Origin: Schmidtea nova
Taxonomy: Eukaryota
Direction of reading: 5' to 3'
DNA length: 64,000 bases
NCBI GenBank assembly: GCA_044892505.1
Contig: CM097882.1
Coordinates: 393,142,001-393,206,000, forward strand
In this document: in pieces, positions 2,252 to 39,322 of the stretch
Layout: the number at the start of each line of letters is the position of its first letter
Numbering within the stretch: position 1 is the first letter of the stretch
Translations under genes and position numbers: made by a program
Notes under the pieces: model-generated
Database searches by the model: none
Told to the model about the DNA's origin: nothing
What the model saw: the letters and a program-made list of their open reading frames with translations, nothing else

Positions 2252-2639
2252 TGATTTCGATGAAATCAGATCTGATTCTGTGCAGGTAGACTCTGTCTCA
2301 ATATGTTGGAGCTTTCGCTAATTAAGAGATAAAGCATCGCATCTTTCCAAAGCCTAGACCGCTAGCTTTATTGGTATTAATGCATCCACCAATTCATGAA
2401 TTCTTGTCATATAATCGTCGTTAAAATAATTTGTTTAATTTAAATCTCTTAAAGCTTTCTTAATACTGTCGTATAGTTCTATGAATCGTTCTAGCATAAC
2501 CATAATTAAAATCAAGTATTAAATTTAATTCTTTTCCATGTTGAATTTTTACATAATTTTGTAAAATTGAGTTCTTGATCGGTGACAATCTAAATAATTT
2601 GACTACTTTTCGAACGCTTTTCAAAGTTCTGCCCCCACT

Positions 2640-5830: not shown

Positions 5831-6492
5831 CGATTTGCACTGGGTATCACAAAGCTTTACTTAATAATAATGAATAATAATAACTAATAATAATAATTAA
5901 TGATAATAATAATAAATAATAATAATAATTAACAATAATATAATGATAATGNNNNNNNNNNNNNNNNNNNNNNNNNNNNNNNNNNNNNNNNNNNNNNNNN
6001 NNNNNNNNNNNNNNNNNNNNNNNNNNNNNNNNNNNNNNNNNNNNNNNNNNNNNNNNNNNNNNNNNNNNNNNNNNNNNNNNNNNNNNNNNNNNNNNNNNNN
6101 NNNNNNNNNNNNNNNNNNNNNNNNNNNNNNNNNNNNNNNNNNNNNNNNNNNNNNNNNNNNNNNNNNNNNNNNNNNNNNNNNNNNNNNNNNNNNNNNNNNN
6201 NNNNNNNNNNNNNNNNNNNNNNNNNNNNNNNNNNNNNNNNNNNNNNNNNNNNNNNNNNNNNNNNNNNNNNNNNNNNNNNNNNNNNNNNNNNNNNNNNNNN
6301 NNNNNNNNNNNNNNNNNNNNNNNNNNNNNNNNNNNNNNNNNNNNNNNNNNNNNNNNNNNNNNNNNNNNNNNNNNNNNNNNNNNNNNNNNNNNNNNNNNNN
6401 NNNNNNNNNNNNNNNNNNNNNNNNNNNNNNNNNNNNNNNNNNNNNNNNGTTATTTTTAAAATAATGATTAATTTACAAATCATCCAACTAAC

Positions 6493-7620
6493 ATCTTTCT
6501 CGACAAAACAATAGTATAAAGGCTCCATTGATTTTGCTGGCACCGGAAGACTGAGACACAAATGCGGCTCCAACTTATACTGACGAATACTACATCCAGG
6601 ACAGGTAATCGTCAGTTGTTGATAGGTAGCAAATAGTTTGTGTATTTTCGAACCGTTTTGATCGGCAATTTTCTTTGCTTCATAATTGATATTGTATTTA
6701 ACATCGCGATTATTATTCGTTTTCCTATCGTGAGCATCAAACGGTTGCAACGTTGGCGCTGGCGAAGGTAATTTCAGCGTTTCGTGGCAATAGTTCAACA
6801 GAAACAATAGAAACTCCTGAGCATCCTGTTGATCGTTACTCTGAAAATTTCGATCAACAATTGCCAGCTTTGATTTGAATTCACTGGCTATTACGTCACA
6901 CTTTAAATTTGGCATCCAAAGACTTTTGAGAAAAAGAGCAAAGCTAAACAAAAAAGAAATCGTTTCTTTTCTCTTGCAATTACTGTTATCTGGAATCGTG
7001 AATTTATTAAGTCGACTGAGATCATCTTTAAATTTGTTTAAAACGAAATATTTAGCGAGAGAATCAATGGAATTGACGCATTGTAGCACAGAATTGATGT
7101 AACACGTATTTCCATGGTTGACAATTCCGCAAATTGAAACGGAACTCTCACTGATTTTGCTGTTGTTCTTTATGATAATAGATGAATTCAATTTTCTATC
7201 ATAGTTTTCCAGAGTAGTTTGACTGGAAAATTTACTTGAAGAGCAGCTGAGATTTATCGCTTCTTTCGAGTCTTTGCTGTTAACATTCAAATTCGATGAA
7301 ATACTCATTGATTTCGATCGTTTTGATCGGAAAATCCTTCGGAATGAGAGTTTATTATTAATTTTTAATGACTTAATACGCTCTCGAGAGCTCAGAGTGT
7401 CATTGGAAATAGCTTTCTTGCTGGAAGACTGACTTTGGTCAAAAGATTTGGCTTTAACAAATGATGTACGAATGAGTTTAGTGAAAAAATTTGAATTTTT
7501 ATCGAGTTTTTTATTTTTTTTCAAATTGTCTTCAATAGTTTCATTGTGAATTTTAAGAGAGACTTTTTTTTTATTATCTAGAAAACTTTTTCGTTTTGCC
7601 CAAAAACGATTACTAAACAT
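6493..7620 (-). CDS. Ubiquitin carboxyl-terminal hydrolase (USP/peptidase C19), N-terminal coding exon
   Basis: Cys box GIVNHGNTCYINSVLQC, QQDAQEFL motif, KLF..YQQLTITCPGC and EPHLCLSLPVP. First ATG at 7620. Likely splice donor GAT|GTTAGT at 6492, after which the ORF-track translation turns into low-complexity sequence. No His box was found in the window. Confidence 0.85.
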
Positions 7621-8319
7621 TAAGTAATTCCAAGTTCCAAAAACGAGCACACACACGCACACAGTTATAGATAAATAATGGAAATTTACTCTAAAATCGA
7701 ATCACTGCTGAAATAAGAATCTTAAAATTGTAACAACAGAATAATATCTTAGATTATAAATTAACCGATAAAAAGTAAGTCCGTTAAATATTTATTTCAA
7801 TTTTAAATTACAACATTTTTATATTTATAAATTTACCATTTAACTAACGTAATTTATATATTTAAACAATTAATAACCAAGGTCGTTTAAAATTGAAATT
7901 AAATTTTTTTTTCAATTTTATTTTCAATTTTGTTTTTATTTTACAAAACAAATTTACAATCGTGAATCTATTTGCAATAATAATGTTGAAAGACATTCCT
8001 GGACAAAACTAGATTCAAATATACCGGCTATTTGAATTGTTAGTCAGTATTTAAAAAACTACTCACTGCGCTATATTACCGGTTCTTGGATTCCAATAGA
8101 GAGTCTTCGGCTCACGATTACTCTATTTTTAAATGCCTATTTTATTATTGTTTCATATCTTTCGAGAACATATCATAATACTGTAAGGCTGGTAAAATGA
8201 AATAAAAATTTGTTTAAATGTGTCAAAAGTAAATACTCACAAAAAGACGAATTCAAAGGTCAGTATTACATATAAGAATATTACGCAGTAAAATATCTCA
8301 AAAGAAAAAAATAATAAAG

Positions 8320-9141: not shown

Positions 9142-10090
9142 TGTTCGGTTCGTATCAGTGGTTTACGACGAACACAGAAAATATATATATAATTGAAACT
9201 TTAATTTGATTATCGGACTCCAAACGATAATCCGCTTATATAATTATAGATAAAATATATGTTTTAGGTTGTGTGTAAAGAAAACAAAACTAATTCTTTT
9301 TAATAAGATTTATTGTGAAATATGTATAACAATGTACAATATAATAAAATAGCTGCAAAGCAAAAGTTAGAAAATCGGTTATTCAAACCGTCCTCAGAGT
9401 TTAAGAACGAAAGCTGGACCTAAAAGGCTCAACAGCTCCGACTAAATGAAAGGACAAGATGAGGGATTCCCGGTAGTTTAATCGCGATAGTGACAACCCA
9501 GAAATGGTTATCACTGTTGCCTAATAAATTTCCTTCTGATATTTAAAGATTTTACTGAAGGAGAAAGATAGTAATACAACTATTTCCCCGTGATCGATTA
9601 AATAAAATATAAACTAAATTTACCAAGACTATGGAGAATATTCTTTTGGTTCCACGAAATTTGCAACTGAACTACAATTTAATTTTAAAACTAAACTTCT
9701 CGTAATATTGTCTCTCAAATTCCCTACTGAAAGTCAATGATTTGTAATTAGTTTAAATAGTAAAGTACTGCCTACACGGCCACGCACAAAAAGTTTACTA
9801 TTATTTTTAGTAATTTTTATTTACTATTTTTAATCTAAATTTATTATTATTATTACTATAATTAGTGTATATCTATTTAGAGCAGTTATTAATTACTATA
9901 TTTATTTCTTTTCTATTTATAGTAATTATTTGTTACTAAAATTACTAATTAAGTATTTAATTATTACTATAATTATTATCTATCTATTTATAGTAATTCT
10001 TAATTGCTATTTATATTTATTTATTTATTTATAATATTTAATTACAAATTTATACAAAACCCCGAGATCCCTTGATCTCGAACCCTAACA
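9142..10090 (-). repeat. 3' LTR of element 1 (949 bp)
   Basis: TGTTCGGTTCG...CGAACCCTAACA. Near-identical to 22908-23747 apart from ~109 extra AT-rich bases. Confidence 0.97.
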
Positions 10091-10389: not shown

Positions 10390-12354
10390 CTAGTTATCCT
10401 TTGCGAATAGGTTTTGAGCTGCTCTCTTGCGAATATGCGCTTGCTCGTTCTTGATGCGATCTTCCACTATATCTGGTCTATAACTGACCACCAATGTTTC
10501 GCGTGTTTCGACTTCCTTATATACCAAAGACGAAATCACGTATGATATTCCGTTGGCCTCCAATACGCCATAGTAAGGGAAGTTTGAAACCGATGATTGG
10601 TGTACCGGTTTCCCGTCGTATTCTTTTATCCGAGGTACCCAATTTCTCTCTGGTCGCTGCCAAAAACTAGGGTCTTCATTGTCCAAATCCTGGGGTGTCT
10701 TTGCTGAATTTCCCGTTCCAACGAAATCCCCTTCTCTTATAATAATAGGTTCGCCCTTAACCTCAGGAATCTGTTCCATATCGGGTGGAACGAATGCTGT
10801 TTCGATTAAATCTTTGTCTTCCGTCGAGAGGAGATTTGGTACTTTCTTTTTGATCTTTAGATCTTGTAACCTTACAACAGGTTCTTGACTTTTCTTCGGG
10901 GATGACTTTTCCACTGAAGTCAACTTTTGAAAAGTCTTAGTAACTTTTTCCAAGAGCTTGTTCTCTTTCTTTGGTGGATTTTCTGGCACGATCTTTGTAA
11001 TTGTACGGCTGTCTCCGTGTAAAGTTAAACGCATCTCTGTTTGCTCCTCACCCTCGCTTTCGCAGGTGGCATAATCGTCTTCATCAGCTAATGATATAGC
11101 TGGAGGGGATAGTGATTCTTCCTCAACTATCTTTTGTAATTTGGTTGATAATGGTTGTTCCTGGGGTAAGCTCTCAATAGCTTTCCTTTTACTCGTTTCT
11201 TGTGGCTGTATTGTATGAACCATTTTGACTTCTGATGTAATCGTCCCACTACGATTACCTGGGGTGATGTCATCTACCCAAACTTCTCTCAGTTTGAGGT
11301 AAATATTACGTGTCGTTTCCACGTCATTTTCCGTTTTCAGATCTGAACGGTTTAGTTCTTCCTTTTCGAGAATTGACTTTGATAAATACGCGAGTCGATA
11401 ATGTCCGTTAGATTTCTTTAGTTCTCTCGCTTCCAGACATTTTGCTGCTCCTAGTTCTCTAATTCCCAAAACTCGTTGAGGGTGTAACTGAACTGCTTCC
11501 AAGAAATCATTGACTTGGAGACCTATTAGGATTTTCCCATCACATAATTTTCTAATACGGTCTGCGCAATCCTCTCCGTCAAATTGTCCGATAATTTCTT
11601 TTTCGGTCATACCATGCGCGTGCGATTGGTAATGTTTGACCTGGTTTCTGGGTGTAACCACCGTGTTTAATATTAAATCACCACAGTAGTTTGCTATCGA
11701 AACAGCCACCAAAGCTGGCTTTAAATAATCTCGCAAAGTTGCGTAATGCGCTGCAATAAATATTGACAATCTATCTTCTTGATTGGGGTGCAGATTCATC
11801 CGAACAAAGGATTTGAATGACTTGAGATCGTTCTCATTCACATTATAGGTCCAGGCAGGTTCGTTTTTCCACAATGATTGCACTGCCTTGCTGGGTTCCA
11901 AAATCTCTAATACCACAATAGTATTATATCCGTCACATTGGATGGAGATATTCTTTTCTCTGCCATCTCCGTTACTAATTTCTAGAGTTGATTCTGGTTG
12001 AAGTAGGATGGGTCCTGTGGCTCCTGCCATGAAGATTGTAAAGGGTTTATTGATCGCGTGAATCAGGAGATGGTGAGTAAATGTTGATCTGTTAAATTCC
12101 GCCATGTGTTCAGTCAACCGGGTGTTCTCACGGCTGGTGATTGTGACTATGCACATTTGTCTCTTAGGCGATCCGAGAAACTTAAAATTGTTCGGGATGC
12201 CGGTGCAGTGCCCGTAATACCAATAGCGACGACCTTTCCGTGCTTCTGCGGATATCGCTTTTTCGATGTTTCGATAAATCAGTTTTTCCTTCTGTACTGT
12301 TTGCACATCGATAGTGCTATAACGCTGCTTGTATTGTGACACTTGATGCTTCAT
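10390..12354 (-). CDS. ORF3 of element 1: N-terminal conserved domain, REX4/ISG20-like DEDDh exonuclease-fold domain (catalytic residues altered), low-complexity linker and conserved C-terminal domain
   Basis: VSIANYCGDLILNTVVTP...HYQSHAHGM...RKLCDGKILIGLQVNDFL...RELG...YRLAYLSKSIL matches the REX4/ISG20 pattern. Start placed at ATG 12354 because a conserved splice acceptor sits just upstream (the ORF track starts at 12426). Confidence 0.75.
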   Translation of the reverse strand: MKHQVSQYKQRYSTIDVQTVQKEKLIYRNIEKAISAEARKGRRYWYYGHCTGIPNNFKFLGSPKRQMCIVTITSRENTRLTEHMAEFNRSTFTHHLLIHAINKPFTIFMAGATGPILLQPESTLEISNGDGREKNISIQCDGYNTIVVLEILEPSKAVQSLWKNEPAWTYNVNENDLKSFKSFVRMNLHPNQEDRLSIFIAAHYATLRDYLKPALVAVSIANYCGDLILNTVVTPRNQVKHYQSHAHGMTEKEIIGQFDGEDCADRIRKLCDGKILIGLQVNDFLEAVQLHPQRVLGIRELGAAKCLEARELKKSNGHYRLAYLSKSILEKEELNRSDLKTENDVETTRNIYLKLREVWVDDITPGNRSGTITSEVKMVHTIQPQETSKRKAIESLPQEQPLSTKLQKIVEEESLSPPAISLADEDDYATCESEGEEQTEMRLTLHGDSRTITKIVPENPPKKENKLLEKVTKTFQKLTSVEKSSPKKSQEPVVRLQDLKIKKKVPNLLSTEDKDLIETAFVPPDMEQIPEVKGEPIIIREGDFVGTGNSAKTPQDLDNEDPSFWQRPERNWVPRIKEYDGKPVHQSSVSNFPYYGVLEANGISYVISSLVYKEVETRETLVVSYRPDIVEDRIKNEQAHIRKRAAQNLFAKDN

Positions 12355-12540
12355 ATCTGAAAGAAAAATAATTAACGTTAATATCAGATATACTGATATG
12401 CCAATATTGGCTAAAAAGAAATGCATAAATCTCGATTTACGGGATCTACTTATGCTGTAAGTTAATGCTACTCGGAGCTCAACAAGATTATAGATTTTAA
12501 TATATATATAAATACAAATATGTGATTTTATCTGTAATTG

Positions 12541-15500
12541 TCATAATCTCGTCATCATAATCCCATCAACCGACTCAATAGCCTGGCTGAAGAATAATTT
12601 CATCCAAACTCCCATTGCTATCAATGTAGTGATCATAGCTAATACTGCTGACGTAATAATCCATACCCCAACGGGTAATTTTCCCAAGTGAGTAATGGGG
12701 TTTACTTCATTAATTTCACACTGACAACTTTTAATATAGCTTTCTGTTGATACTGTTGGTTTTACCATTTTCAATCCTTTCAATCTCTGCCATATTGCAG
12801 GATGAATGACGTAACTCTCTTTCCGTATTAAGGATGTAACCGATTTCGTTGTCGTCGATGATTGAGGTAATTTCAAAGAGATTACTTCATAAAATACCTC
12901 ATTCCATTCATCGACTCCGGGCTTTTGTTTATTATTCATATAAGTGATATGAGCTTCCCACTCCACTGAACTGTTCCACTTAAGATTTTGTTTCTCAATA
13001 TCTTCATTTAGCCACAATTCTTGTACTATTTCCTTGTCGGAATGGATTTCTATCTTTACTCTATCCACTCCTTGTTTTGGTTGGCTGAAGGTAATCATAC
13101 CTTGTTGGATATTTATCTTAACTTTCCTTTTGAAATCTGCTGTCTTCAACTTCCATTGTGACTTTGAAAAATCTGACCATCGTCCAAACATAAAATGTTG
13201 TACAAGTATATCTAATAAATATTCCTTTTCTGCTCGTAAGTCCTTTATGACTTTCACTCTTGTGTTTGAATCCAATGTAAAATGGAAACAACGTCGTTCA
13301 CAAAACGAGAACTTGAATTTGGTATCATTTTCAGCTAATGATATTATCCTAAATTCCTGGAAAGATCTTCTGAATGCGAGATCTTGGATTTGTACCGCTG
13401 TTGGAACAAATGTCTTTACACAGGATATAAGGCAACTTATTATTACCAAAAACGTAACTGATTTTGGCACGCCTCTTGATCGTAATGGATATCTGTCTGA
13501 GACTGGTTCTGACCCTTTATCCTCCTTTTTCTTAATCGGATCTTTCTCCGTGACCGCAACTTTCTTGCATCTGTTAGCATGTACCATTATTGGTTCAGCT
13601 TTTCTATTTGCTACTAATTGCAAGATTAAATTCGTGTCTGTGGTTCTCAAAACCTCATATGGTCCTTTGAAGTTTCTCATTAATTTAGGTGATAAGCCCT
13701 TTTTATTATAATGGCTTTCCAACATCACCTTGTCTCCAACTAACATGCCATGTCCTTTGGCTTTCTTATCATGATAATCTTTCGACGCTTCCTGACTGAA
13801 TTTTATACTAAGACCTGCTTTTGTCCATGCTTCTTGCATTCTTTCTCTCATTTCCATGAGATAATCCTCTTGGTCTAAATACTGCGTTGCTTTTGGGAAA
13901 AACAACAAGTCTATAGGCATTTTACTTTGCCTTAAATACATGAGATAGAACGGCGTTTGTCCCGTACCCTCATGAACAGCATTTCTGTATGCGAATAGGC
14001 ATGATGGAATATGTATATCCCAATCCGTTTGCCCTGAATTTACGTATGATGCTAGCATATTTGCGAGCGTTCCGTTAAATCTCTCTACCAATCCGTCTGT
14101 TTGTGGATGGTATGGAGAGGTATTCAGTTTTAAAATGTCGAAATAATCATTTATTCCTTTTAACAGATTACTCATGAAATCTGCTCCTCTATCTGTAAGT
14201 AGTTTTGTAGGTACTCCATACCTAAAAACAATTTGCTCTACGAAAATCCTGGCTATCGTATCTGCCTTGTGATTCGGTATCGGATAAGCCTCCGGCCATT
14301 TCGTCAAGTAATCGCAAAATACCAATATGTATTTGTTACCACTATTTGATTCTTTGAATGGCCCTAAAACATCCATTGCCGTCATTTCCATCGGTGTGGA
14401 TGGTACTGGCATTGGTTTCATTGGCACATGCGGTTTCTTCCCCGTATTTCTCCTGGTGATACAGATCTTACATGTCTGACACCATTCCTGTACGTCTTGT
14501 TTGATTGTCGGCCAGAAATATTTCTGCTTCAACCTTGACAATGTTTTCCTGGAAGACAAATGCCCTCCCAGTGCTCCATCATGATATTGTAACATCAAGG
14601 CTTCCCGATATTTCTTAGGGACCATTATGACATTATCCCTTACGTCTACATATTTGACTAATCCTTCTTCTAGAATAAATTTGTCTCGATTTTTCTCCCA
14701 ATATTTATTAAATTCCGTCGGTATGAACTTTGCTTCTAAAGCCTGTCTGATTTGGTTTATCTCTTCATCCGATTGTTGTGCTGCCATTAAATCCGCGAGT
14801 CTATTTGCTTCTCTTGTAAGTGCGAAGATTGTTCCTTCTAATCTTCCTTCTTTGATATCTTCTGCTTCATCACCTTGGTCCATTCGCGAAAATGCATCTG
14901 CATTCCCATTTTGATGTCCTTTTCGGTAATGTATTTCGATGTCATATGGCTGCAAGATCAATGCCCATCTAACCAACTTTGATGTATCCATAGTATGCTT
15001 TGTTAACCACTGTAATGGTCTATGATCCGTATACACAATGATCTTTCGACCCCATAAATATGTCCTGAATTGGTGTATAGCATACACAATTGCTAATGCT
15101 TCTAATTCGATAACTGCATAATTCTTTTCATGTGGTTTTAATCCTCTGCTAGCATACGCTATGGCATATTCGTCTCCTAGGTCATCTCTTTGACCTAACA
15201 CAGCACCAATACCCCGAGTGCTGGCATCTGTCATGACCAAAAATTGTTTCTCAAAATCTGGAAACCGTAATATAGGAGGTTCCACGAGCATCCTCTTTAG
15301 CATATCAAATGCTTCCTGTTGCTCTTTTCCCCATACAAATTTGACATTTTTGCCCTCTAATTGTGTTAAAGGAAATGCTATTGCCGAAAAGTTCCTGATG
15401 AACTTCCTGTAATATCCCACTAAGCCCAAAAACCCTTTTATATGTTTAACAGTCTTTGGCTCTGGAAAATTCTTTGCTTTCTCAACATTTGCTGGATCTG

Positions 15501-18500
15501 GCTTTACTCCATCCTTCGAGATAATGTGACCGACATAGACTACTTCTGATTCGGCCCATTTACATTTTGATGGTTTTACCTTGAGATTTGCGTTTATCAA
15601 CCTTTTGAATACGTCCTCTAAATGTTCTAAATGCTTTTCCAAATCTGGAGAGAATACTATGATGTCATCTATGTATACCATTGCATGATGAACATCCATT
15701 AACATTAGATTCATTGCTCTTTGAAACGTTGCCGGCGCTCCTGTGAGACCAAATGGCATTACTGTATATTCGAAATGTCCCAGGCTTGTAGAAAAAGCCG
15801 TAATTGGTATTGTCTCCTCTTTTAACTTGATTTGGTAAAATCCCTTCTGAGCATCCATCACTGAAAAATATTTTGAATTTCTCATACGACCGTAGATGTA
15901 ATCCAGTAATGGTAAGGGGTGACTATCCTTGCAAGTGGCTTCGTTTACCATTCGATAGTCGTTGCATAGTCGTACTGTTCCATCCTTTTTAGCCACTACT
16001 ATCATTGGTGACTGGTATGGTGATTTACTATGCCTGATGATGTTATGTTTTAACATCAGTTTTACCTGCTTATCGACAGGTTCTTCCAAGCTAAACGGAA
16101 TTCGATACGGTCTCAGTTTTATTGGTTTCGTATTGTTAAGAACAATTTCATGTTCCAACAAATTCGTCTTTCCCAGATCATATTCGTGCTTGGCGAATAC
16201 TTGATCATATTTTCTTAATAACATGTTGACTTGGATATTCTCTCTTCGTGAAAGAGCTTTACTATTTGCCGTTGGCGCATCATAGTACTCGATGTCTGGT
16301 TCTCTATTCTCTGCCTTCACTGTCAGGACAGATCCCCCAATCGATAATTGATCCGACTTTGATACTCTCCCTACTCTTGTATCTGGATACAATTTTAATG
16401 GTTTTATATCTAAATTGGCTACCCGAATTGGTATTCTGCCATTTTCAACTTTACCAACGCTATGCGTAATTGATAGATTATATTTTGCTGAGAACCTTTC
16501 ATCTGGTTCGAATACAACTTCTCCTTCCCACTGTTCGCTAGTGGACACGAAACATACTGTTTCTGCTCTGGGTGGTATTATCATTGTATGATCGATGAAA
16601 ACTGTATCATCATTATAAACTTTTCTTTTCTTACCGATTGATCTAACTAACAATCCGGTAGCACAATCGAACACAACTCCTTTTAATCTTCTTAAAAGAT
16701 CCATTCCTAGTAGACATTCTACTGGACAAGTTCTCATGACTATAATATCATGACGAAATTCTTGGTCACATAGCTTGATGTTACAAGCTAGAGTACCAAT
16801 AATATTCAATGATGTGCCTCTAGCACCTGTTAGCGAAACTCTTGAGGTTTCCATTGATTCCAATTCTTTTAGATTTAATAGTGTTGCCTCTATGATAGTG
16901 CCGTCTGCTCCTGAATCTATCACTGCATTAACTGTGTGTCTGTTTATTTTTATCTTTATCATGGGTTTCTTATCCAAGTTCACCCCATTTGCCATCAAAA
17001 TAGTAGCATGCGTTATCCCGATGGTATTTGCTCTGAATTTCTCTGCTTCATCTTGTTCGGTATCACTCAATTTTGGATTATATTCCTTGAATTTAGCTTT
17101 TATTGCTTCTAACGACTCGATAGGATACAGTTTCCCTTCATTTTCTAACGATAGTGATATGCTTTTACCTGTTTCTCGAGCATCTTTATCGCGAATTTGT
17201 TGATGTTTAGAAGTGTAAATTTTGTTTCTTGGAATGGTTAAAGCATAATTTAGTTTGCCCTCTCCTGATGTCTTTTGAAACTCTGGCGATTCCCCCTTTG
17301 GCGCTGTTGGTAAGCTTCTAAGATACGGCAATTGCATATATCTTGGGCTTCTTTTCAATCTAGGCGATGTTGTATTGATTGCAAATTTCTGGTCTGCACT
17401 ATCGTCTTCATCTTCTGAAATCATACTTTTGTCGAAAATCTGTTTTGTCGCTTCGTAAGGTGGTTGATAATCCCGATATTTCATTTTCCTTAATTGATGA
17501 TTCGGTTTTTTATTGTAGTTTCTTTTTCGACTTCTACTTTGCCTCTGAACTGTATTAAGAGAGTCTCCATTACCTCCTCCTTCCGAATTGTTATCGTCCC
17601 GATAACTTGTATTACCCTCCATTTCGATTCCAATAATCTCGTGTTTTACCAAGCTTCTCTGTTTGATTGTCTTTATTTCTTTACGATGATGTTTAAACAA
17701 TGCAAATTCCGCACACATAGGACACAATCCTAGTATCAACTTCCAAGACCATCCACCGATTTTGAATATGCTGTATGTGGAAATTAATTGTGTTATTATT
17801 AACTTTAGAATTACGAATATTGCATATATTCCTGAGCAGCCTGCCACGAAAATACCAAAATTGGTAAACCTTCCCCATATTTTCATCATCACATTTTTAG
17901 CTGCTTCTTTATAATGATCTGGACCGAATAATAAATTGTAATCTGGTCTCATTTCGTTTGCTTGGTAAATTGTTCTTATGATTTCAGTGATACATCTTTC
18001 TCTTACTTGAGGGAATAGCAATGTCTGTCTTGCCTCCTCAATATCTGCTGGAGTGTAAATTCCTCCTTGTGATAATTCATCGAGTGATTTAAATTCCATG
18101 TTTTCCTCGAGTTTCGTGACTTCCAATGTTTCCACCTTTCTATTAGATGGTTTTCTGTCAGGTAATGAGATCCATCTATCATTTACCTTGTATAACGGTG
18201 ATATTGCTGGATTGCAAATTGAAGGTTGAGGCTTTTGTTTTTCATCCAAAAGTCTCCTCGTAACTGGCATTACAAATCGTATTTTGTTTTGATATGACAC
18301 TGGTAATTCTAGAGTACATTCATTATACCGAGTTAATTGTACCTCTATGGGTTGACATTGATAGCTGTATATAGCTTCCCCCATAATTCTGCCAAACATT
18401 CCATCTTCTAGCAACATAGGTGTCACTAGATCCGGATTCACGATTGATATCGCTAATCGATTTCGAACTATTTCGCGATTTAGTTTGCAATCATTGAGTA

Positions 18501-19044
18501 TTACTTCCTGATACATTTCCTGCATTTGTCCTTGCAGATCATGATATAAATAATCTATTTTATTATTTATATAGTTCGTGATTTTGATATCCTGGCTGTG
18601 AATATTCTTGGCTTTTTGGATAAATGTTTTTGACAAATATAATCCTTTATAGTTGGTCTCATACACCACTTTTCCGCATTTTGTCTTCTTATCTTTTCTG
18701 ACAAATCTGATTGCATCTTTCTTATCTTCTGATACTAATACTAGAGGTGTGATTTCTTCACTAATATCCTCTTTTTGCTGTTTGTTGATCCTTTTCAACG
18801 TCTTTTCTTTATCCCAAATTCTTTCTCTTTTGGGTAAATCTCGATACTTTGTCCCGTTCAACTTATGGAAATTAATTTTCTTTAGTAATGACAATTCGCA
18901 ATGGTCTAGTATTTGATCGTATAATAATGTAATGACCCCTGTTCTGCAGCTTCCAAATTTCGCAAGGCACTGAGGGTGTGCCATTAATCTTCCTGATAAT
19001 ACATCGAAAGTCCCTTCGTATTCTCTTAATTCGATTGAATAGTC
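12541..19044 (-). CDS. pol: Second part of element 1 polyprotein: C-terminal part of glycoprotein, aspartic protease, RT, RNase H, integrase, second type I membrane protein
   Basis: VIDSGA (~16910), PYRIP/CNDYR/YIDD RT motifs, TDAS...ELEALAI...TDHRPL RNase H, H-x6-H...C-x2-C and D,D(35)E integrase with GPY motif. In frame with the upstream ORF across TAG 19045-19047. Confidence 0.95.
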   Translation of the reverse strand, partial: DYSIELREYEGTFDVLSGRLMAHPQCLAKFGSCRTGVITLLYDQILDHCELSLLKKINFHKLNGTKYRDLPKRERIWDKEKTLKRINKQQKEDISEEITPLVLVSEDKKDAIRFVRKDKKTKCGKVVYETNYKGLYLSKTFIQKAKNIHSQDIKITNYINNKIDYLYHDLQGQMQEMYQEVILNDCKLNREIVRNRLAISIVNPDLVTPMLLEDGMFGRIMGEAIYSYQCQPIEVQLTRYNECTLELPVSYQNKIRFVMPVTRRLLDEKQKPQPSICNPAISPLYKVNDRWISLPDRKPSNRKVETLEVTKLEENMEFKSLDELSQGGIYTPADIEEARQTLLFPQVRERCITEIIRTIYQANEMRPDYNLLFGPDHYKEAAKNVMMKIWGRFTNFGIFVAGCSGIYAIFVILKLIITQLISTYSIFKIGGWSWKLILGLCPMCAEFALFKHHRKEIKTIKQRSLVKHEIIGIEMEGNTSYRDDNNSEGGGNGDSLNTVQRQSRSRKRNYNKKPNHQLRKMKYRDYQPPYEATKQIFDKSMISEDEDDSADQKFAINTTSPRLKRSPRYMQLPYLRSLPTAPKGESPEFQKTSGEGKLNYALTIPRNKIYTSKHQQIRDKDARETGKSISLSLENEGKLYPIESLEAIKAKFKEYNPKLSDTEQDEAEKFRANTIGITHATILMANGVNLDKKPMIKIKINRHTVNAVIDSGADGTIIEATLLNLKELESMETSRVSLTGARGTSLNIIGTLACNIKLCDQEFRHDIIVMRTCPVECLLGMDLLRRLKGVVFDCATGLLVRSIGKKRKVYNDDTVFIDHTMIIPPRAETVCFVSTSEQWEGEVVFEPDERFSAKYNLSITHSVGKVENGRIPIRVANLDIKPLKLYPDTRVGRVSKSDQLSIGGSVLTVKAENREPDIEYYDAPTANSKALSRRENIQVNMLLRKYDQVFAKHEYDLGKTNLLEHEIVLNNTKPIKLRPYRIPFSLEEPVDKQVKLMLKHNIIRHSKSPYQSPMIVVAKKDGTVRLCNDYRMVNEATCKDSHPLPLLDYIYGRMRNSKYFSVMDAQKGFYQIKLKEETIPITAFSTSLGHFEYTVMPFGLTGAPATFQRAMNLMLMDVHHAMVYIDDIIVFSPDLEKHLEHLEDVFKRLINANLKVKPSKCKWAESEVVYVGHIISKDGVKPDPANVEKAKNFPEPKTVKHIKGFLGLVGYYRKFIRNFSAIAFPLTQLEGKNVKFVWGKEQQEAFDMLKRMLVEPPILRFPDFEKQFLVMTDASTRGIGAVLGQRDDLGDEYAIAYASRGLKPHEKNYAVIELEALAIVYAIHQFRTYLWGRKIIVYTDHRPLQWLTKHTMDTSKLVRWALILQPYDIEIHYRKGHQNGNADAFSRMDQGDEAEDIKEGRLEGTIFALTREANRLADLMAAQQSDEEINQIRQALEAKFIPTEFNKYWEKNRDKFILEEGLVKYVDVRDNVIMVPKKYREALMLQYHDGALGGHLSSRKTLSRLKQKYFWPTIKQDVQEWCQTCKICITRRNTGKKPHVPMKPMPVPSTPMEMTAMDVLGPFKESNSGNKYILVFCDYLTKWPEAYPIPNHKADTIARIFVEQIVFRYGVPTKLLTDRGADFMSNLLKGINDYFDILKLNTSPYHPQTDGLVERFNGTLANMLASYVNSGQTDWDIHIPSCLFAYRNAVHEGTGQTPFYLMYLRQSKMPIDLLFFPKATQYLDQEDYLMEMRERMQEAWTKAGLSIKFSQEASKDYHDKKAKGHGMLVGDKVMLESHYNKKGLSPKLMRNFKGPYEVLRTTDTNLILQLVANRKAEPIMVHANRCKKVAVTEKDPIKKKEDKGSEPVSDRYPLRSRGVPKSVTFLVIISCLISCVKTFVPTAVQIQDLAFRRSFQEFRIISLAENDTKFKFSFCERRCFHFTLDSNTRVKVIKDLRAEKEYLLDILVQHFMFGRWSDFSKSQWKLKTADFKRKVKINIQQGMITFSQPKQGVDRVKIEIHSDKEIVQELWLNEDIEKQNLKWNSSVEWEAHITYMNNKQKPGVDEWNEVFYEVISLKLPQSSTTTKSVTSLIRKESYVIHPAIWQRLKGLKMVKPTVSTESYIKSCQCEINEVNPITHLGKLPVGVWIITSAVLAMITTLIAMGVWMKLFFSQAIESVDGIMMTRL

Positions 19045-22000
19045 CTAGATATCTACTACAAAACTTACCAACTCCGATCCGCGAGTTTTCTTTCTTCCCG
19101 TACAGGTACCATCTGATCCAATTGATCCTCCTCTTGTAATGGTTACTCCCAGTGTTTTCCCTACTTCCGCGGCGATGGTTACCTCGTTATCGATTCTTAA
19201 AGTACCTTTTCGAAAGGCATCCAGACAATCCTCTGGCAATATGTTGACAGGTCTAGGTATTAGAGTGGCTGATAGAAAAGCCGTGTAGCTGTGTGAACCA
19301 CAATAATATTCAAATGTCGCTCTTTGGACTCTACATTCTCTTATCTTAGTTCTGAAGAATTCACTTTCTTGATAGACATAGTATTCGACCTTTTCTCCTG
19401 TTTGGACTTTCTCTGGATATGCCTCTTTGCACTCAATTGCATCTACGAGCGAATATATCCGAGCTAACTTTGGATCACTGCAATCAAACGCTGTCATTGT
19501 GTTTGTCTGTTTCATTATCCCCATCATTACTAAAAACATTAATATCATATTCGTCATATTCCCCATTCCTCCATTTCCGAGGTGGTTGTTATTCATAGCC
19601 TCTTCCACAAATTCATATCGTGGTTTATGTTTCTCCTCTTCCCAGAAGTTATTTTCACTCATCCACGTTCCGAGATAATGCTCCGTTATCTCCGTGATCT
19701 GGTCTATTTCTCGATTAATAAGTTTCTTCTCATTGCCTGCGCGGGCTAAGGCGTCTTGAATCAACATAGATAATGCTGTCACTATTTTTCCTTTAGATAA
19801 CCCATCTTGTATGAGTGTCTCTAACATATTCTGTATCTCGTTTTGAGGTACCCCTTTAGGTAATCTCCTCATCGTCTTCGCGATTGTCTGTGTCACTTTA
19901 TCCACTTGAATTCCTTTAATCCGAGTGATCTGCCATTCCGGCTTTAATATTCCTATGATCTGTTTTAATCTCTTCCATGTCAGAGATTTTTCTGGTATAT
20001 GTACTCCCTCGTCTCTCATATCAACATCCCTGGCTATTCCTGACAGGGTTTTCATCTGAACCTGTTTAATGGTTTCTTGGTTTAATTGCTCCGTTGGGGG
20101 AGGTTTCATTTGATCTTTCCTAGGCCTTCCTCGCCTATCTTTCTTTGTCTGCCATGCTGGCCTGACATTTTCTACCGCCTGAGAAGTTGAAGCTCCCACG
20201 TTAGTTTCCTCATTATTGAGTCTGATTTTCTCTTCTCCGTGATTATCGGCATCGATATCTACATTAAGTGGTTGTGTCTCAACGTTACCAATGACCATTT
20301 CATCTGGTAACCGTAATGCTGACCATTGAGATTCAGGTGGCTCTACGGGAATGATTGCTACCGTTGTAGTTTCAAATGGTAGACATCCCACATCTACTAA
20401 ATATTCATCATCATCCACTTGCCCTCCATGAATCATAATCAAGAATATACCGGTAGTCTGCCCAGTATCTATTAAATCTTTTCTCAACGTTATCACTTTG
20501 CTAAAACAACGATATAATCTCGTCATGGGTTCTTTTCCCAATATTCGAATGTCTAAAGTTATCATGCCTTGTCGGTGTGCTTGATGACGTATTGCTGTTC
20601 CATTTTTCCTCATTAACATTTTTATTTCTGTTTGAAAAGAACTAGTTTCTTTTACTACAGGTAGTAATATAGGAATTATACTCTCCAATGATTCTACTGG
20701 TATGCGCAATACCAACATCCAGTCTAATATTTCCTTGATTGTTTCTCCATCCCTCGGAGATTTCTGCAACTCTATCTTCAGACGTTGCTCTATTTGTTGG
20801 ACTTCCTCCAACTGTGCAATTTCCATTTGTGTGAGTAGAAACACACTGTCTTGATCCACTACTGGGACCGATATTCCTGTCAGTTTTGTTGTGAGTTTCG
20901 TTACCCTTCCTGGTAATACACCATTTTGTAGTAGTGTTTCCCCAACTACTAACTTTTCTCCATATAGATAAAAATCATATCTATTATGTTTCAATTTCGT
21001 CATTGTATCTGACAACTTATCTGTTCGACATCTTACATTCATGTCGATGTTAAACTCCTGCTCCTGAGGAAGTTTTATGTTTAAATGCGAATCCTGAAGA
21101 TCCCATTCATGTTCCATTGCTGTCCCTATCTTTCGTAGGATTCTATGTATGTCGCTATGATACCTTGGATCATCTTCGACCTGAGATATTAACTGTAATA
21201 TCTTTCCAATTTCGCTATTCTTGATATCACCTTGTGATAATTTCTCTAATTCTCTAGTCAGTCTCTGCTGATACTCATATCTGGAATCCACCAGTTTTAA
21301 ACATTTTGCTAGGGTATCTGACCCTTTCTTGGCCTTTGTTTCCTTGAACAAAGCCTGGTCGAACTCGCTCAGTATGGTACTCATACTGAGTTCGTCATCA
21401 TTATCAGAATTTGTTTCTGATTCTATTACCTCATGATTCTCGCTGCTGGAATCCATGGGTTCACTATTTCCTTGCTCATCTGTGTAAGCATCATGATTTT
21501 TCTCAGCTGAAATCATCAAAACTGTTCCTTGCCCAACTGTGTGAGCATCATCGCTTTCCTCAATGGGATTCATTATAACTGTTCCTCGCCCATCCATGTG
21601 AGCATGATTTTTCTCAGCTGAAATCATAAAAACTGTCTCTTGCCCAACTGTGTGAGTCTCATTTATTTCTTCAATTGTATTCATCAAAACTGTTCCTCGC
21701 TCATCTGTGTGAGCATGATTTTTCTCAGCTGAAATCATAAAAACTGTATCATCTCGAACCATTAGCCGTGCTAATCGATTTTTCTCCTCCTGGATTTCCA
21801 TTTCCAGTTGTTGCAAATACGTCAATTCTTTATCGTGATTGACCATGAACGTAGTTTTTGGCTTGCTGACATTACCACTATTGGTAGTCCTACTATTCGT
21901 ATGATTACTCTGATTTTGAGGACACGACCTCAGGATATGCCCGAATTTTCCACACCCGTGGCATTTTATCTTTCCTGATGAATTTACATCATCCCTTTTT

Positions 22001-22806
22001 ATATTAAAATTCCCATTCGTTGGGAGATTCCTAACTCTACAAACGGAAGCAACATGCCCTCTGCGTTTGCATTTATCACACTGCAAGTTCGTGACTCTAC
22101 AGTTCTCAACACTATGATTATTCATACCACATTTAGTACACTGAATACCCCTACGAGTATCAGCTACCTTCTTACTGTGGCAATCTTTTGATATATGCCC
22201 CTTCTTATGGCAGTTAAAACATTCAATTGCTGGCTTCTCATTATTTACCATAAATGAGGTAGCCTTTTCTAAGCTGCTTTCGATTACGACAGCTTTTCTT
22301 GTTAATTCCCAAAAATCATCTCCCGTGTGGAGAATCAATGCATTTCTCATAACATTTGTGAATCCAGCTAATAATTGGTCTTTAACCATAGCTTTAGTTG
22401 CATCATTCCAGGTAGTTCTGAGCCCAAATGCTCTTTCTGCTAATAACAATAATTGGTAGGAAAATTCTCCTACATGTTCATTTGCATTCTGCTTCCTGTG
22501 ATAAAACTGTTGTCGGAAAATTCTACTTGAATCTCCCGGTAATATTCTAGCTGTTAGTGATTCTCTCATCTTTTCCCATGTAGCTGGTTTATCTGCTGCT
22601 GGTAACGCCATAATATCATTGTAGTTTTCCCTTGCCATACCCTTAAGGTAAATTGGCAATCTTTGTATCATTATCGCATCTGGATACCCATAGGCCTTTG
22701 CCATCTGATAATACTCTGACATAAACTCCGGAAATTCCCCTGGATCTCCGCTAAATGCCTTGACAGGTAAAGCGGGATATCTAGCAAAAACATTTTCCTC
22801 CACCAT
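19045..22806 (-). CDS. gag: First part of element 1 polyprotein: Gag with four CCHC knuckles, accessory domains, signal/TM segment and N-terminal part of glycoprotein
   Basis: Retrotransposon Gag core (FSGDPGEF...YLKGMA...RKQNANEHVGEF), four CX2CX4HX4C knuckles, then MILMFLVMMGIM followed by AFDCS...CGSHS. Confidence 0.9.
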   Translation of the reverse strand: MVEENVFARYPALPVKAFSGDPGEFPEFMSEYYQMAKAYGYPDAIMIQRLPIYLKGMARENYNDIMALPAADKPATWEKMRESLTARILPGDSSRIFRQQFYHRKQNANEHVGEFSYQLLLLAERAFGLRTTWNDATKAMVKDQLLAGFTNVMRNALILHTGDDFWELTRKAVVIESSLEKATSFMVNNEKPAIECFNCHKKGHISKDCHSKKVADTRRGIQCTKCGMNNHSVENCRVTNLQCDKCKRRGHVASVCRVRNLPTNGNFNIKRDDVNSSGKIKCHGCGKFGHILRSCPQNQSNHTNSRTTNSGNVSKPKTTFMVNHDKELTYLQQLEMEIQEEKNRLARLMVRDDTVFMISAEKNHAHTDERGTVLMNTIEEINETHTVGQETVFMISAEKNHAHMDGRGTVIMNPIEESDDAHTVGQGTVLMISAEKNHDAYTDEQGNSEPMDSSSENHEVIESETNSDNDDELSMSTILSEFDQALFKETKAKKGSDTLAKCLKLVDSRYEYQQRLTRELEKLSQGDIKNSEIGKILQLISQVEDDPRYHSDIHRILRKIGTAMEHEWDLQDSHLNIKLPQEQEFNIDMNVRCRTDKLSDTMTKLKHNRYDFYLYGEKLVVGETLLQNGVLPGRVTKLTTKLTGISVPVVDQDSVFLLTQMEIAQLEEVQQIEQRLKIELQKSPRDGETIKEILDWMLVLRIPVESLESIIPILLPVVKETSSFQTEIKMLMRKNGTAIRHQAHRQGMITLDIRILGKEPMTRLYRCFSKVITLRKDLIDTGQTTGIFLIMIHGGQVDDDEYLVDVGCLPFETTTVAIIPVEPPESQWSALRLPDEMVIGNVETQPLNVDIDADNHGEEKIRLNNEETNVGASTSQAVENVRPAWQTKKDRRGRPRKDQMKPPPTEQLNQETIKQVQMKTLSGIARDVDMRDEGVHIPEKSLTWKRLKQIIGILKPEWQITRIKGIQVDKVTQTIAKTMRRLPKGVPQNEIQNMLETLIQDGLSKGKIVTALSMLIQDALARAGNEKKLINREIDQITEITEHYLGTWMSENNFWEEEKHKPRYEFVEEAMNNNHLGNGGMGNMTNMILMFLVMMGIMKQTNTMTAFDCSDPKLARIYSLVDAIECKEAYPEKVQTGEKVEYYVYQESEFFRTKIRECRVQRATFEYYCGSHSYTAFLSATLIPRPVNILPEDCLDAFRKGTLRIDNEVTIAAEVGKTLGVTITRGGSIGSDGTCTGRKKTRGSELVSFVVDI

Positions 22807-22907: not shown

Positions 22908-23747
22908 TGTTCGGTTCGTATCAGTGGTTTACGACGAACACAGAAAATATATATATAATTGAAACTTTAATTTGATTATCGGACTCCAAACGATAATCCG
23001 CTTATATAATTATAGATAAAATATATGTTTTAGGTTGTGTGTAAAGAAAACAAAACTAATTCTTTTTAATAAGATTTATTGTGAAATATGTATAACAATG
23101 TACAATATAATAAAATAGCTGCAAAGCAAAAGTTAGAAAATCGGTTATTCAAACCGTCCTCAGAGTTTAAGAACGAAAGCTGGACCTAAAAGGCTCAACA
23201 GCTCCGACTAAATGAAAGGACAAGATGAGGGATTCCCGGTAGTTTAATCGCGATAGTGACAACCCAGAAATGGTTATCACTGTTGCCTAATAAATTTCCT
23301 TCTGATATTTAAAGATTTTACTGAAGGAGAAAGATAGTAATACAACTATTTCCCCGTGATCGATTAAATAAAATATAAACTAAATTTACCAAGACTATGG
23401 AGAATATTCTTTTGGTTCCACGAAATTTGCAACTGAACTACAATTTAATTTTAAAACTAAACTTCTCGTAATATTGTCTCTCAAATTCCCTACTGAAAGT
23501 CAATGATTTGTAATTAGTTTAAATAGTAAAGTACTGCCTACACGGCCACGCACAAAAAGTTTACTATTATTTTTAGTCATTCTTATTTACTATTTTTAAT
23601 CTAAATTTAGTATTTAATTATTACTATAATTATTATCTATCTATTTATAGTAATTCTTAATTGCTATTTATATTTATTTATTTATTTATAATATTTAATT
23701 ACAAATTTATACAAAACCCCGAGATCCCTTGATCTCGAACCCTAACA
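22908..23747 (-). repeat. 5' LTR of element 1 (840 bp)
   Basis: Matches 9142-10090 and is flanked by the PBS and the TSD. Confidence 0.97.
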
Positions 23748-30900: not shown

Positions 30901-31880
30901 ATTTATATGTCAATGACTGATAAAATATTTTACTTTCCATACAAATTTGTTTCTAAATGTCATTTATCCGATAAAATATTTCTATCGTGCTAACTCGTTT
31001 GTAAAGGTCAAAATTGATTTTCTGGTTTAATTAAACCTCAGGATCTTTCAATCCTTTTATATTTCTTTTTTCCTCGCAAATTTAATATATATTCTTGGTA
31101 ATTGCCAATCTATTATTAGCAACAAAAATTACTAAAAATAGACATTTTAAATTTATTTAAATTATTACCTAATGTTAACGTTGAGGCCTAAGGGCCTATC
31201 CGTAACATATCTCCCCCAGAAGATTTTCGTCTCGAAAATAAAGACATTATAACACTATAACAATAAAATAATAAAAATTATACATAAAGATCACAATATA
31301 TAAATAATAGTTCACATATAATTGTTTTAGTAATGATCAAAATGTCTTTAGCAGGATTTGCTTCTGATTTTCTCTGGCGATTTTAGCGCGTCTGGCTACT
31401 TCATTGGGTCGGTAAATGACTACCAAAGGCTCTCTATTGAAGGCACTAACTCAGATGTTAGTTGCCAAGATTTGAGGTACCCCACTCACATCAGGAACTC
31501 GATGATGAGGGTAATTTGTGATTTCCATATAAGAAACTGGTTTTCCATAAAATCTTTCACCTAAAGGTATCCATTGTCTGTCTGTCCGTTACCACTACAT
31601 AGAGCAGTCTTCGTCTAAGTCAATGGACACGTAGTTACGAATGATGTTGTCGTTTGGATCGTTAATTCTTTTTTATGTCACTGTCTTCAATAATGTGTGT
31701 TGGCGGCTGGAAACTAAGTTCTTCCAATTCTTCCGTGGGTGTCGAAGGTTTCACTTTTGGGACTGTAACATCAACTTTGCTGGTTGTGCTTTGTTTGGGT
31801 GTTTTGTGAAGCTTAAGCTTCTCTTTATCTCTTTTCTTGGCCTTGGCTGGAATCATCTTTATCAGGATCTTTTTAACTGT

Positions 31881-32567
31881 TTATTTTGTTGCTGCTGGTT
31901 TTTTTATCTTTTTAGTTTTGCTCGCGCATGTTTTGTATGTGTTTTCTTCCTTTTTTAAGGAGATTGGAGGTGGTAGTATAAGATCGTCAATAATTTCTGT
32001 CTCCTTGGGCTTAGATAATTTAGGTATGCTAGATTCTGGATGAGTTTCTTCTTTCATTTTTGAGGATTTTAAAACAATGCTTCTGTTTGATACCTCTGAC
32101 GACTGTTTTTGTTGGCTGGTTCCTGGTGTGGTTTTTGCATGGTTCGCCTCCATTGCTAATTGGATGACATTTGTTCTTGATATACGTAAATGCATTTGTT
32201 TGCCCCGCAGAAAACCGGCATCAAGATTTCGAATTGCCGTCATAGCTTGTGGGTGAATTGCAAACAGCACCAAAGCCGTATTCTTTTTGTTAAACGTAAT
32301 TGTAACATTTGCGTTAACCATCATGATATTGTTTGCTTTGATCTGTTCGTCTTTATTTCGACCGTGCGTCATTAGAGAGCATATTAATCGCCCAACAATT
32401 GGACATTGTGCTTTTCTAAATCGTTCTGTTCTATAACGACCAGCAGACTGGGGAATTATTTTTGCATATTTTCCACTATAATTAGTGTAATCTGTTAATG
32501 ATAGATCGGTAGCGTGAACATCATCAGTGCTCCATTTAATGAAAAGTTTAAAGTCAGATATATTCAT
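31881..32567 (-). pseudogene. Chimeric ORF: 40S ribosomal protein S5 (uS7) N-terminal fragment, PTB/hnRNP-L-type RRM fragment, and ORF3 linker of element 2
   Basis: KLF.KWSTDDV..DLSL.DY....KYAK..P.SAGRY...[19 protein letters not shown] is RPS5. [10 protein letters not shown]......AM.AI..L....L.GK...L..S....IQL resembles PTB RRM3. Confidence 0.8.
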
Positions 32568-35500
32568 AGTTTAACACACAATTATTCATATAAATAAATT
32601 CAACAATGCAAAACGTATATTTTAAAATACCACAAAATTAAAACAAGCGTTTTTTTATCTTTAGTTTTTTTATACAATTTCTTTTTTTATATAATAAAAT
32701 ATATATTCAATATACTCTTAATATATATTTAATTTATATTTAATATAAATATTATATTTATTTATATATTAATTATATCACCACGCCTGGGTTTTCGTTA
32801 TCTCTCAGGACTTTATCCGATGAAATAAATTCATAATCTTCACTAGGTGGTGGGAAATGATCAACCCATTTATTTCGAAATTTAATATATACCGCCATAA
32901 TTGTTCGAGTTTCGTTTTCTGCCACCAAGTCTCGACTTTGGCAAAGTTTGTCGTACAGTATTGTTTAGCTAAGAAGCAGAGTTTGTACGCTCCGTTGAAT
33001 TTTTCTAGACCTTTGTCTTCAAAAAATTTGGTGGATCCCAGGTCTCTGATTCCTAAAACTCGTTGTTAGGGTAACTTGGCTATTGCAAGGAGATCATTTA
33101 ATTGGATTCTAACTATTATTTTGCCGTCACACAATCTTTTAATTCATCACCGTCGAGGTTTTCCCAGATGCCAGATTCTTGTAGTCTGTGTTTGATAGAG
33201 TCACATGGAGTGACCACTGAATTCAATAAAGGTTTTCCTTTAATATCTAGGATTGAGATTGCGACTATTGCCGAACTCATATTCGTGCGTAGTACTAAAA
33301 CATTTACCGCAATAAATACAGTAAGTGAATCTTCCTGCTGTTTTGTTAAATTCTTTCTTACAAAAAATTTGCCTTTGTTACAATCTTCGTCTTTTATGTG
33401 GTAATATCAATCAATTTCCTTATCCCTGATTATAGGGTAGGGTTTTCTATAATTTAGGATTTCCAGCACAATAAATGTAGGATATTCTGTCCCTTGAATG
33501 GGCATGTTTTTCTCTCTTCCATCGGAGTTATTAATCTCCAGACTGCTATTTAATTCCATATCTATATGTCCGGCCGCACCTGCGATGAATATAGTAAAAG
33601 TTTCGTGATTGGATGTATCCATAAATATTTCGTATTCTGACACGACTTGAATTCTCGGAATAAATCAGTTAATAGGATGATTCCCTTACTTCCAAGGATA
33701 GTGATGATCATTTGTCTATGAGGACTGTTTGGGCATTTGAAATTGTTTGGTATATTTACCCATCTCGGGTAGTACCTATAAATTTCTCGTTTCTCTTTGA
33801 ATCGGCCCAGAATGGCCTCGGACATAAATTTCTAAACGTATTCCTCTTTGAATACTGTGTTGATTTCAACTGGACTAGCGATATCCTTGGGGTACGATGA
33901 CACTGAATGGCTCATCCGAGATCTGAAAGAAAATATTAATTTCTCGCTTTTTAAGCTATAAATTCCTAATAAATAGATATACATAAAGATAAATAAATTA
34001 TCTGTAATTGTCATAATTGGAAGTCATATAAATTGTTTATATTTTGGATTTGGTAATTTACCCTTTTGTTTACCCAATACGCAATTAATAATAAAATTAT
34101 TATTATACTTTTAATCCCCTTGGCATTCTGCCAAGTATTGCCTTGTGACTTTTATGTCGTGTCAAAATCTCTGATCACATAACCTAATTTCACAATCGAG
34201 TGTTCCAATTACGTAAATTAATTGACCGTTAGCTCCTGTGGCTGAGGCCAAAGTTGGATTAAATGCTTGAATTCCGTTTTCATTTCGTAAATATGCTTCT
34301 ATCATCGTTAGATCTGGGCCAAAATCAATTAGCGCATGCACAATGTGTCTGTTTACTTTGATTTTGATTGTCGATTTGTTTTCCAGGTTACTTGATTTAA
34401 CAATACAAATTGTTGACATTCCCATCAGCTTTTCTCTCAATCTTTGTTCATCACTCTTATCCATATTGTTTTGTATTTGTTCTAGCATAAGAAATGGGTA
34501 ACTTGGTATCTGATTATTCCAAGCTGATCCCATTTGGGGTAAAGATTCACCCTTTCTTTCGTGCTTTTTTAAGGATTTACTCATTTTTCAAAACATCTCA
34601 GAAGCCTTCGTTTCCCGTCTTTACTTTATCCGGAATAATTTGTTTATTTGATTGATAAGGCGGTATGTATTCCTAATAATACTGAGTTTTTCTTCTCTTT
34701 GAAAAGTTAATATTGTCTGATTTGTTTGAAAAAGTAGTTTTTGTGTGGTCTAGGAGAGAATATCTTTTGGGCTATGTTATCATCTTGATTATCTCCCTCC
34801 TCAGAATAGCCGTCTTCTCAATGACTATAATTCTGATTTATTTCTCGTACAATTTCATGTTTGATTACATTTCTCTTTGGATTTTTCTAATTTCTTTATG
34901 CTGATGTCTAAATAATGCGAACTCTGCGCACATAGAGCAAATCCTTAGAAGCAATTTCCAAGACCATTCTCTGATCTGGAATATGCTGTATGTAGATATG
35001 AGCTGTGAAATTATAATTTTTATTATAATTATGGCATAAATGCCTGAATAGCTTGCTACGAATATGACAAAACCTTTACATCTTCCCCAGATTCTTTTTA
35101 TTACATTTTTTTCCATTTAATTTCTTTATAACATTTAATAATAATAAAAGGTTATAATTTGGTTTACTATCTATTTCTCGATATATTCTTTCTATTAATT
35201 CCATTACTCTCCTGTCTCTTGCTTGAGGAAATATAATTGCTCTCCTTGCTACCTCGATATTTTCTGCAGTGTAGGAACCTTTTTGTGCCATTTCGTTAAG
35301 TGTTATAAATTATACTTTATTGTCTAGCTTCGATGCTTACAGAGTTTCAACTGATTTGGCTACCAAGTTTCTGTCAGGTTAATATATCCAATAATTACCT
35401 ATCTTGTATAATGATGATGTCGCCGGATTACATGCTGTTGATCTTGGTGCCGTCTCTTTATTTAAAAATTGGTACGTAACATGTAACATGAACCTTATTT

Positions 35501-38500: not shown

Positions 38501-38794
38501 CATTATCATTATTAATATTATTATTATTGAATCGAGCCAAACCCACTTTTAATGCATTTTTATTTTCATCAGTAAACAATTCCTCTGTCATAATGTCAAA
38601 GATATCACTGTTTAACCTGAAATCATCAAAAGAAGCATTGGATTGTTGACGTACGTCAGATGTTTGAATTCTCGATATTAAAATTGAATTTGAATCACAA
38701 TTAACTTTTTTAAATTGAAAAGTAGGATTGATATCACTTGGGAATATAATATTATTTTCACAATCTATAGAAATACACTCTTTCGTTTCCAAAG

Positions 38795-39322
38795 CAGAGG
38801 CGGACTGGCTACTTATTCTCAGGGTTGCTGATGTACCTCAGGGGCCCGTAATTGCATGCAGGGTCACGAATTCTTTCTAAACAAATTTTACCTCTATGTT
38901 AAATTTACGTGAAAAATGACAAAGAAACGAAAGAGTCCTTTAAATAGCGTTATTTTTATGAAATTTTATAATAATAAATTTAATATCACAGTTGAACTTA
39001 CTTCAAAATGATCCGTTAATGAAATAAAATTGCATGCACAATGCAGAAATGATAATTCACGAGAATTCTCTGATAGCGCGGTTAAGTTATACTAACAAAC
39101 TTAGCAATTAAAACAAATATATAAAAAATGTTCGTAAATCAGCCTGATTATTATAATTCTATACTTGCATTGTTGATTTAAATAAATTTTTTTCATAAAG
39201 TACAAATCAATAGGTATTAACTAAAATATATATTTTTATTCTACATTGGGCCCGGATCCCTAACATTTGGAAAGGGCCCGGGTTGCTAACGCAACCCGGC
39301 AACCCGGGTCAGTCCGCCACTG
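38795..39322. mobile_element. Non-autonomous hAT element (528 bp)
   Basis: TIRs CAGAGGCGGACTG / CAGTCCGCCACTG with perfect 8-bp TSD TTCCAAAG. Confidence 0.93.

Follow-up and report, generated by a model that had tools for sequence, protein, structure and literature searches.

In bdelloid rotifers, the long terminal repeat (LTR) elements Juno and Vesta as well as the Athena/Terminon elements encode an intact RNase D-like DEDDy exonuclease as a third open reading frame (ORF3), according to PMC5408684, which also describes Maelstrom and EXD1 as inactive DEDD derivatives that retain RNA binding. Orchid Ty3/Gypsy elements harbor an extra ORF for AlkB, a 2-oxoglutarate (2OG)-dependent dioxygenase (2-ODD), which is an active N6-methyladenosine demethylase close to plant AlkB (PMC9289625), and the env gene is located between gag and pol in planarian Burro elements, which carry a different cargo (PMC6431247). 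GAG-ENV-POL errantiviruses with an env of the glycoprotein B (gB) type occur in flatworms, bryozoans and nematodes (PMC13524379). Here we analyzed a stretch of 64,000 nucleotides from Schmidtea nova (contig CM097882.1, positions 393,142,001 to 393,206,000; hereafter the window, to which all plain coordinates refer), in which a Ty3/gypsy GAG-ENV-POL errantivirus carries a separate ORF3 (10390..12354, minus strand) combining two predicted enzyme folds.

The stop-to-stop frame of ORF3 (12540-10390, minus strand) comprises 716 codons, which we use for residue numbering. Its second domain (amino acids 258-424; 11269..11769, minus strand) follows the pattern of REX4/ISG20-type DEDDh exonucleases, as already proposed in the initial annotation, and the catalytic set D-E-D-H-D reads A-H-F-L-D, i.e. 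four of the five residues are lost. In line with that annotation, ExoI reads IFIAAHY instead of the expected D-x-E (A263, 11754-52; H265, 11748-46), and the ExoIII motif DLKTENDV has L401 (11340-38) in place of the His, with D406 (11325-23) retained; the loss of the ExoII Asp (F346, 11505-03) can be added. Nevertheless, the domain matches ISG20L2 by sequence (E 6.7e-6) and by profile (E 7e-34), and the structure prediction set beforehand as a check returned an RNase H-like DEDD fold with ISG20L2 and ISG20 as the closest structural matches. The window protein has no Pfam match at all, whereas RNase_T is found in 35 of 79 aligned relatives at E values of up to 10 (best 6.9e-11). The domain thus has its predicted fold in common with REX4, ISG20 and ISG20L2 (PF00929; PDB 1wlj, 7yw5), from which ORF3 differs in its lost catalytic residues, in its fusion to a dioxygenase fold and in being element-borne. 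Metal-dependent cutting by the domain is improbable.

The catalytic loss is not the lesion of one copy. When we searched the genome for ORF3 homologues, examining the best 150 of 1,872 candidates, the matches listed included at least 86 near-full-length copies with at least 95% identity and further families with 40-57% identity and open frames of up to 703 codons. The A-H-F-L-D set is present in all of the 30 top copies, which were chosen by score and include the window copy. Out of 20 divergent loci, 19 gave a frame, and none of these harbors either the ExoI pair or the ExoIII His, in one case due to a deletion. The same genome also contains families in which the motif is complete (84 matches), whose ORF lies behind env and pol at locus L091 and behind the integrase at L093 and L095, as well as the host's cellular REX4, an intron-split gene at C1:10.19 Mb.

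Dead ORF3 is under purifying selection. For the exonuclease domain, we compared natural copies of the dead families in 12 pairs by the method of Nei and Gojobori; the ratio of nonsynonymous to synonymous substitutions (dN/dS) ranges over 0.04-0.23 across the five pairs with finite dS, where four of the corresponding bootstrap intervals end below 0.35 and one at 0.48. In the other seven pairs, with protein identities of 41-79%, synonymous sites are saturated. Intact families gave values of 0.07-0.21 in three pairs, two of them near saturation, and there is no indication of relaxed selection after the catalytic loss. In 10 of the 12 pairs, the exonuclease domain is more conserved than the N-terminal domain.

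To place the protein in a wider family, we searched 1.84 billion sequence representatives, which yielded 109 matches. The pooled set comprised 127 sequences, 102 of which span all five catalytic columns and were assigned, by hit rank and tree position, to 24 cellular REX4-like and 78 element-type proteins. After collapsing the latter at 90% identity (n = 72), 41 keep all five residues, one keeps two, 19 keep one and 11 keep none. Catalytically intact relatives therefore form the majority, next to 31 degenerate homologues. The initial annotation had suggested a nuclease-dead fold retained in two family members; fold and retention are supported, and the scope is far wider than two copies. In a tree rooted on REX4 the dead forms are derived, some of them on very long branches, and the window protein belongs to a dead clade of eight (support 99/94), or of seven (98/91) when the catalytic columns are removed. 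The tree hints that catalysis may have been lost more than once (approximately unbiased test, p 0.112). Element-type proteins are separated by a long branch from cellular REX4 and differ from it by signatures of their own (G-x-D-L, PR, DE, GIRDL, W-x-D). The link to antiviral ISG20 drawn initially is weak, given this separate position, the status of ISG20 as a co-orthologue of Rex4 in vertebrates (PMC10899777) and a host that looks like an invertebrate with a REX4 of its own. Among four metagenome loci, the two long ones show env, protease, reverse transcriptase, RNase H and integrase followed by an intact-motif ORF, and the two short ones have no visible gene context; for the remaining element-type proteins an element origin is probable. 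One metagenome element has an extra open frame of 222 codons between polyprotein and exonuclease ORF (L102:9105-9770).

The domains flanking the exonuclease fold had been annotated as conserved but of unknown identity. This no longer applies to the N-terminal one (amino acids 63-217; 11890..12354, minus strand), which is modeled as a double-stranded beta-helix core to which strands and a helix are added at the N-terminus, as in 2OG-Fe(II) dioxygenases of the AlkB/prolyl hydroxylase type. These enzymes are characterized by an HxD/E...H iron triad and a 2OG-binding Arg. Using strand positions from the secondary structure of the model, we found HxD/E near strand II in 2 and a His near strand VII in 8 of 60 homologues, but both in none, and identity to solved dioxygenases is 3-12%. 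Residues conserved in the family are Y89, IPN115-117, K120, H161 and E212. The C-terminal domain (amino acids 618-697; 10450..10689, minus strand) is indeed conserved, with a short beta-rich motif, and is separated from the exonuclease fold by a variable, charged linker (10744..11268, minus strand; 27-45% identity across families).

From these data we favor, at a probability of about one half, that ORF3 is an accessory protein whose two dead folds bind RNA and protect the element against the RNA surveillance of its host. Since catalysis is dispensable but the fold is not, the shared function is likely to be binding, and nucleic acid is favored as the ligand, because the dead clade has near-invariant Lys/Arg residues, not found in the intact sets, several of which are located on pocket-forming elements. 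The old cleft would now be lined with Lys/Arg, through which the protein, both of whose folds lack their catalytic residues, could bind RNA rather than cut it. The ancestral protein may have both bound and trimmed its substrate, with only binding kept in the window lineage; as to the ligand, one may speculate about small RNAs of the host or the 3' ends of RNA from the element itself. The anti-silencing role is equally speculative and draws on the analogy to the arenavirus ExoN (bioRxiv 2021.02.01.429129, accessible part) and to orchid AlkB as well as on an apparent exchange of ORF3 between element backbones. Several observations weigh against this reading. The ISG20L2 substrate contacts are gone in the alignment (R226 to Q305, W229 to A308), G-x-D-L, L383 and Q396 are degenerate, and the net charge of the window domain is -1 compared to +5 to +8 in sister families. 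In addition, the conserved Lys/Arg might be explained by binding to an acidic protein or by shared ancestry, all three pairs with the window copy are saturated and give no finite dN/dS, and the expression and splicing of ORF3 are deduced from sequence.

A less probable alternative is that, in the manner of viral pseudo-enzymes, the dead folds act as a decoy or antagonist by binding protein, either a host defense factor or a partner such as an active ORF3 from sister elements; however, basic residues were gained around the old pocket in the dead clade, and nucleic-acid-acting relatives are among the top structural matches of both folds. It is unlikely that the exonuclease fold is only a structural passenger, which packs against and stabilizes an N-terminal domain working via His161/Glu212/Lys120. 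The two-domain model (pTM 0.90) is better than that of the N-terminal domain folded alone (pLDDT 81.8, based on a shallower alignment), and H161 (88%) and the acidic residue 212 (93%) are kept across the 60 homologues, dead and intact, which is consistent with such a role, but the dead domain is usually the more conserved one in the pairwise comparison and has clade-specific invariant surface residues of its own. Slightly less likely still is a rewired active site, with a substitute metal or catalytic center built from D345, which directly precedes the position of the missing ExoII Asp, together with D/E406, H303 and H307. The seven closest lineages agree with it (D/E345 in six, D/E406 as well as H303 and H307 in all seven, C325 and C333 in six), and Maelstrom, in which DEDD is replaced by ECHC, provides a precedent in the accessible part of bioRxiv 2021.02.01.429129. 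Yet both beta-1 ligands are lost, only 29% of the wider dead group have D at 345, only H303 of the proposed set is near-invariant among eight more divergent dead lineages, and in 11 of the 31 dead homologues not one of the five residues is left. Finally, a cargo gene that was once active might simply be decaying neutrally, which would fit a decayed second element in the window and the very long branches of some dead homologues. This is highly improbable, being largely refuted by dN/dS far below 1 and by open frames of 690-716 codons, which persist in several families whose identity is 40-57% and whose synonymous sites are saturated.

The element itself (23747-9142, minus strand) has TG...CA ends and a 4-bp target duplication (ATAA). 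Its 5' LTR (22908..23747, TG...CA) adjoins a primer-binding site (22904-22887), which we take to be that for tRNA-Trp, and a polypurine tract (10102-10091) lies just upstream of the 3' LTR (9142..10090), all on the minus strand. The insertion in the window is young, since the LTRs are identical in 837 of 839 aligned columns, and the family is recently spreading. A single frame (12541..22806, minus strand) encodes gag, env, protease, reverse transcriptase, RNase H, integrase and a tail, with weak Pfam matches in the gag part and a gB-type envelope region (PF24664; 17665..19551, minus strand; two parts, E 3.9e-69 and 2.5e-19) between gag and protease. These features and the order of the pol domains identify the element as an errantivirus. 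The window copy has a stop within env (19047-19045), whereas the polyprotein is open over 3,446-3,453 codons in many sister copies. The tail after the integrase (13473-12544, minus strand) consists of two hydrophobic segments with about 240 residues between them; it has no match in a Pfam scan, shares 26% identity with the corresponding tail in a sister family (79% identity in the reverse transcriptase), and is possibly a second membrane protein. In one sister family, an env fragment looks by eye like a published planarian element, consistent with a planarian host.

ORF3 is likely to be made from spliced RNA, as judged from sequence features. A candidate 3' splice acceptor (TTAAT, a T-rich tract and CAG; 12357..12375, minus strand) is located two bases ahead of the ATG, from which ORF3 comprises 654 codons, and ranks first of 252 AG sites. 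All of the 11 loci scored show a T-rich tract and YAG ahead of the ORF3 start, with the acceptor ranking 1st to 24th among 172-479 AG sites per locus and the next ATG following within 16 bases in 10 loci; sites were picked by hand and the score is ad hoc. Two elements, L051 (G000:C2:30.35 Mb) and L065 (C1:58.35 Mb), are 94-99% identical across pol, but identity falls to 50-77% from the pol stop onward, in ORF3 and further on, which suggests that the ORF3 region was exchanged between backbones.

Element 2 in the window (about 30300-46700), which is interrupted by another gypsy element (about 40359-44262), is internally deleted, with most or all of pol gone and the ORF3 region kept, as is L089 (G000:C3:103.50 Mb). 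The ORF3 relic of element 2 (31382..33927, minus strand) does contain the annotated VFIAVN, located at 33319-33302 rather than about 33270; being full of stops and frameshifts, this copy alone says little for retention. A single-copy open homologue of 601 codons with the motif D-T-K-F-K (L067/L087, G000:C1:264.55 Mb) is nested among intact members without adjoining gag or pol and is a candidate domesticated or stranded gene. More high-copy families with frames of 483 and 484-515 codons match REX4 at 28-32%, by which the genome would contain several further exonuclease-carrying families. Elsewhere in the window, by eye, we presume an exon of a ubiquitin-specific protease gene (5929-7701, minus strand), a hAT-like transposase fragment (1112-2317, minus strand) and a Penelope-like reverse transcriptase with a GIY-YIG end (54819-55979, plus strand).

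Compared to the systems described in the accessible parts of the literature, the window element resembles the errantiviruses of PMC13524379 in how its genes are ordered, in the type of env, in a size of close to 14.5 kb and in being multicopy; the word exonuclease is absent from the main text and seven supplements of that source, and the downstream ORF is undescribed there. As in the rotifer elements, an LTR element has acquired a DEDD exonuclease in the form of a separate third ORF, but those are intact, of the DEDDy type and in elements without env, whereas ours is DEDDh, two-domain, in env-carrying elements and includes a long-lived dead lineage. We rejected a rotifer-type DEDDy ORF3, since intact relatives carry a His in ExoIII and are matched by PF00929. 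A 2OG-dioxygenase fold as an extra ORF of a gypsy element is shared with orchids, although the window domain, unlike AlkB there, is far from solved dioxygenases, has no iron triad and is fused to an exonuclease fold. Like the pseudo-nucleases Maelstrom, EXD1 and Exuperantia, it has a DEDD fold without the acidic set; these are host genes from other DEDD branches, and the window domain shows no ECHC site. In the errantivirus literature we found no REX4-type DEDDh ORF, dioxygenase-exonuclease fusion or dead lineage; subscription papers, Repbase reports, the nematode GAG-ENV-POL paper and bioRxiv supplements were outside this scope and may mention the ORF.

A tentative and rather doubtful extension is that invertebrate errantiviruses have a retrovirus-style accessory gene, in which a dioxygenase-fold reader and a 3'-end nuclease disarm small-RNA or RNA-surveillance defense; lineages such as that of the window would be pure clamps or decoys, swapped between backbones, and may free-ride on active versions of co-resident families. 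Env-carrying Ty3/gypsy elements are described as three-gene viruses, and ORF3 is a fourth, separately encoded gene of undescribed two-domain architecture, which occupies the same place in elements of this genome and in two metagenome contigs. It adds an element-borne case of a pseudo-enzyme kept by selection, and the active-motif and dead versions, side by side in one host at high copy number, form a ready pair for addressing the role of captured nucleases in retroelements, a question that the rotifer elements raised but did not answer.
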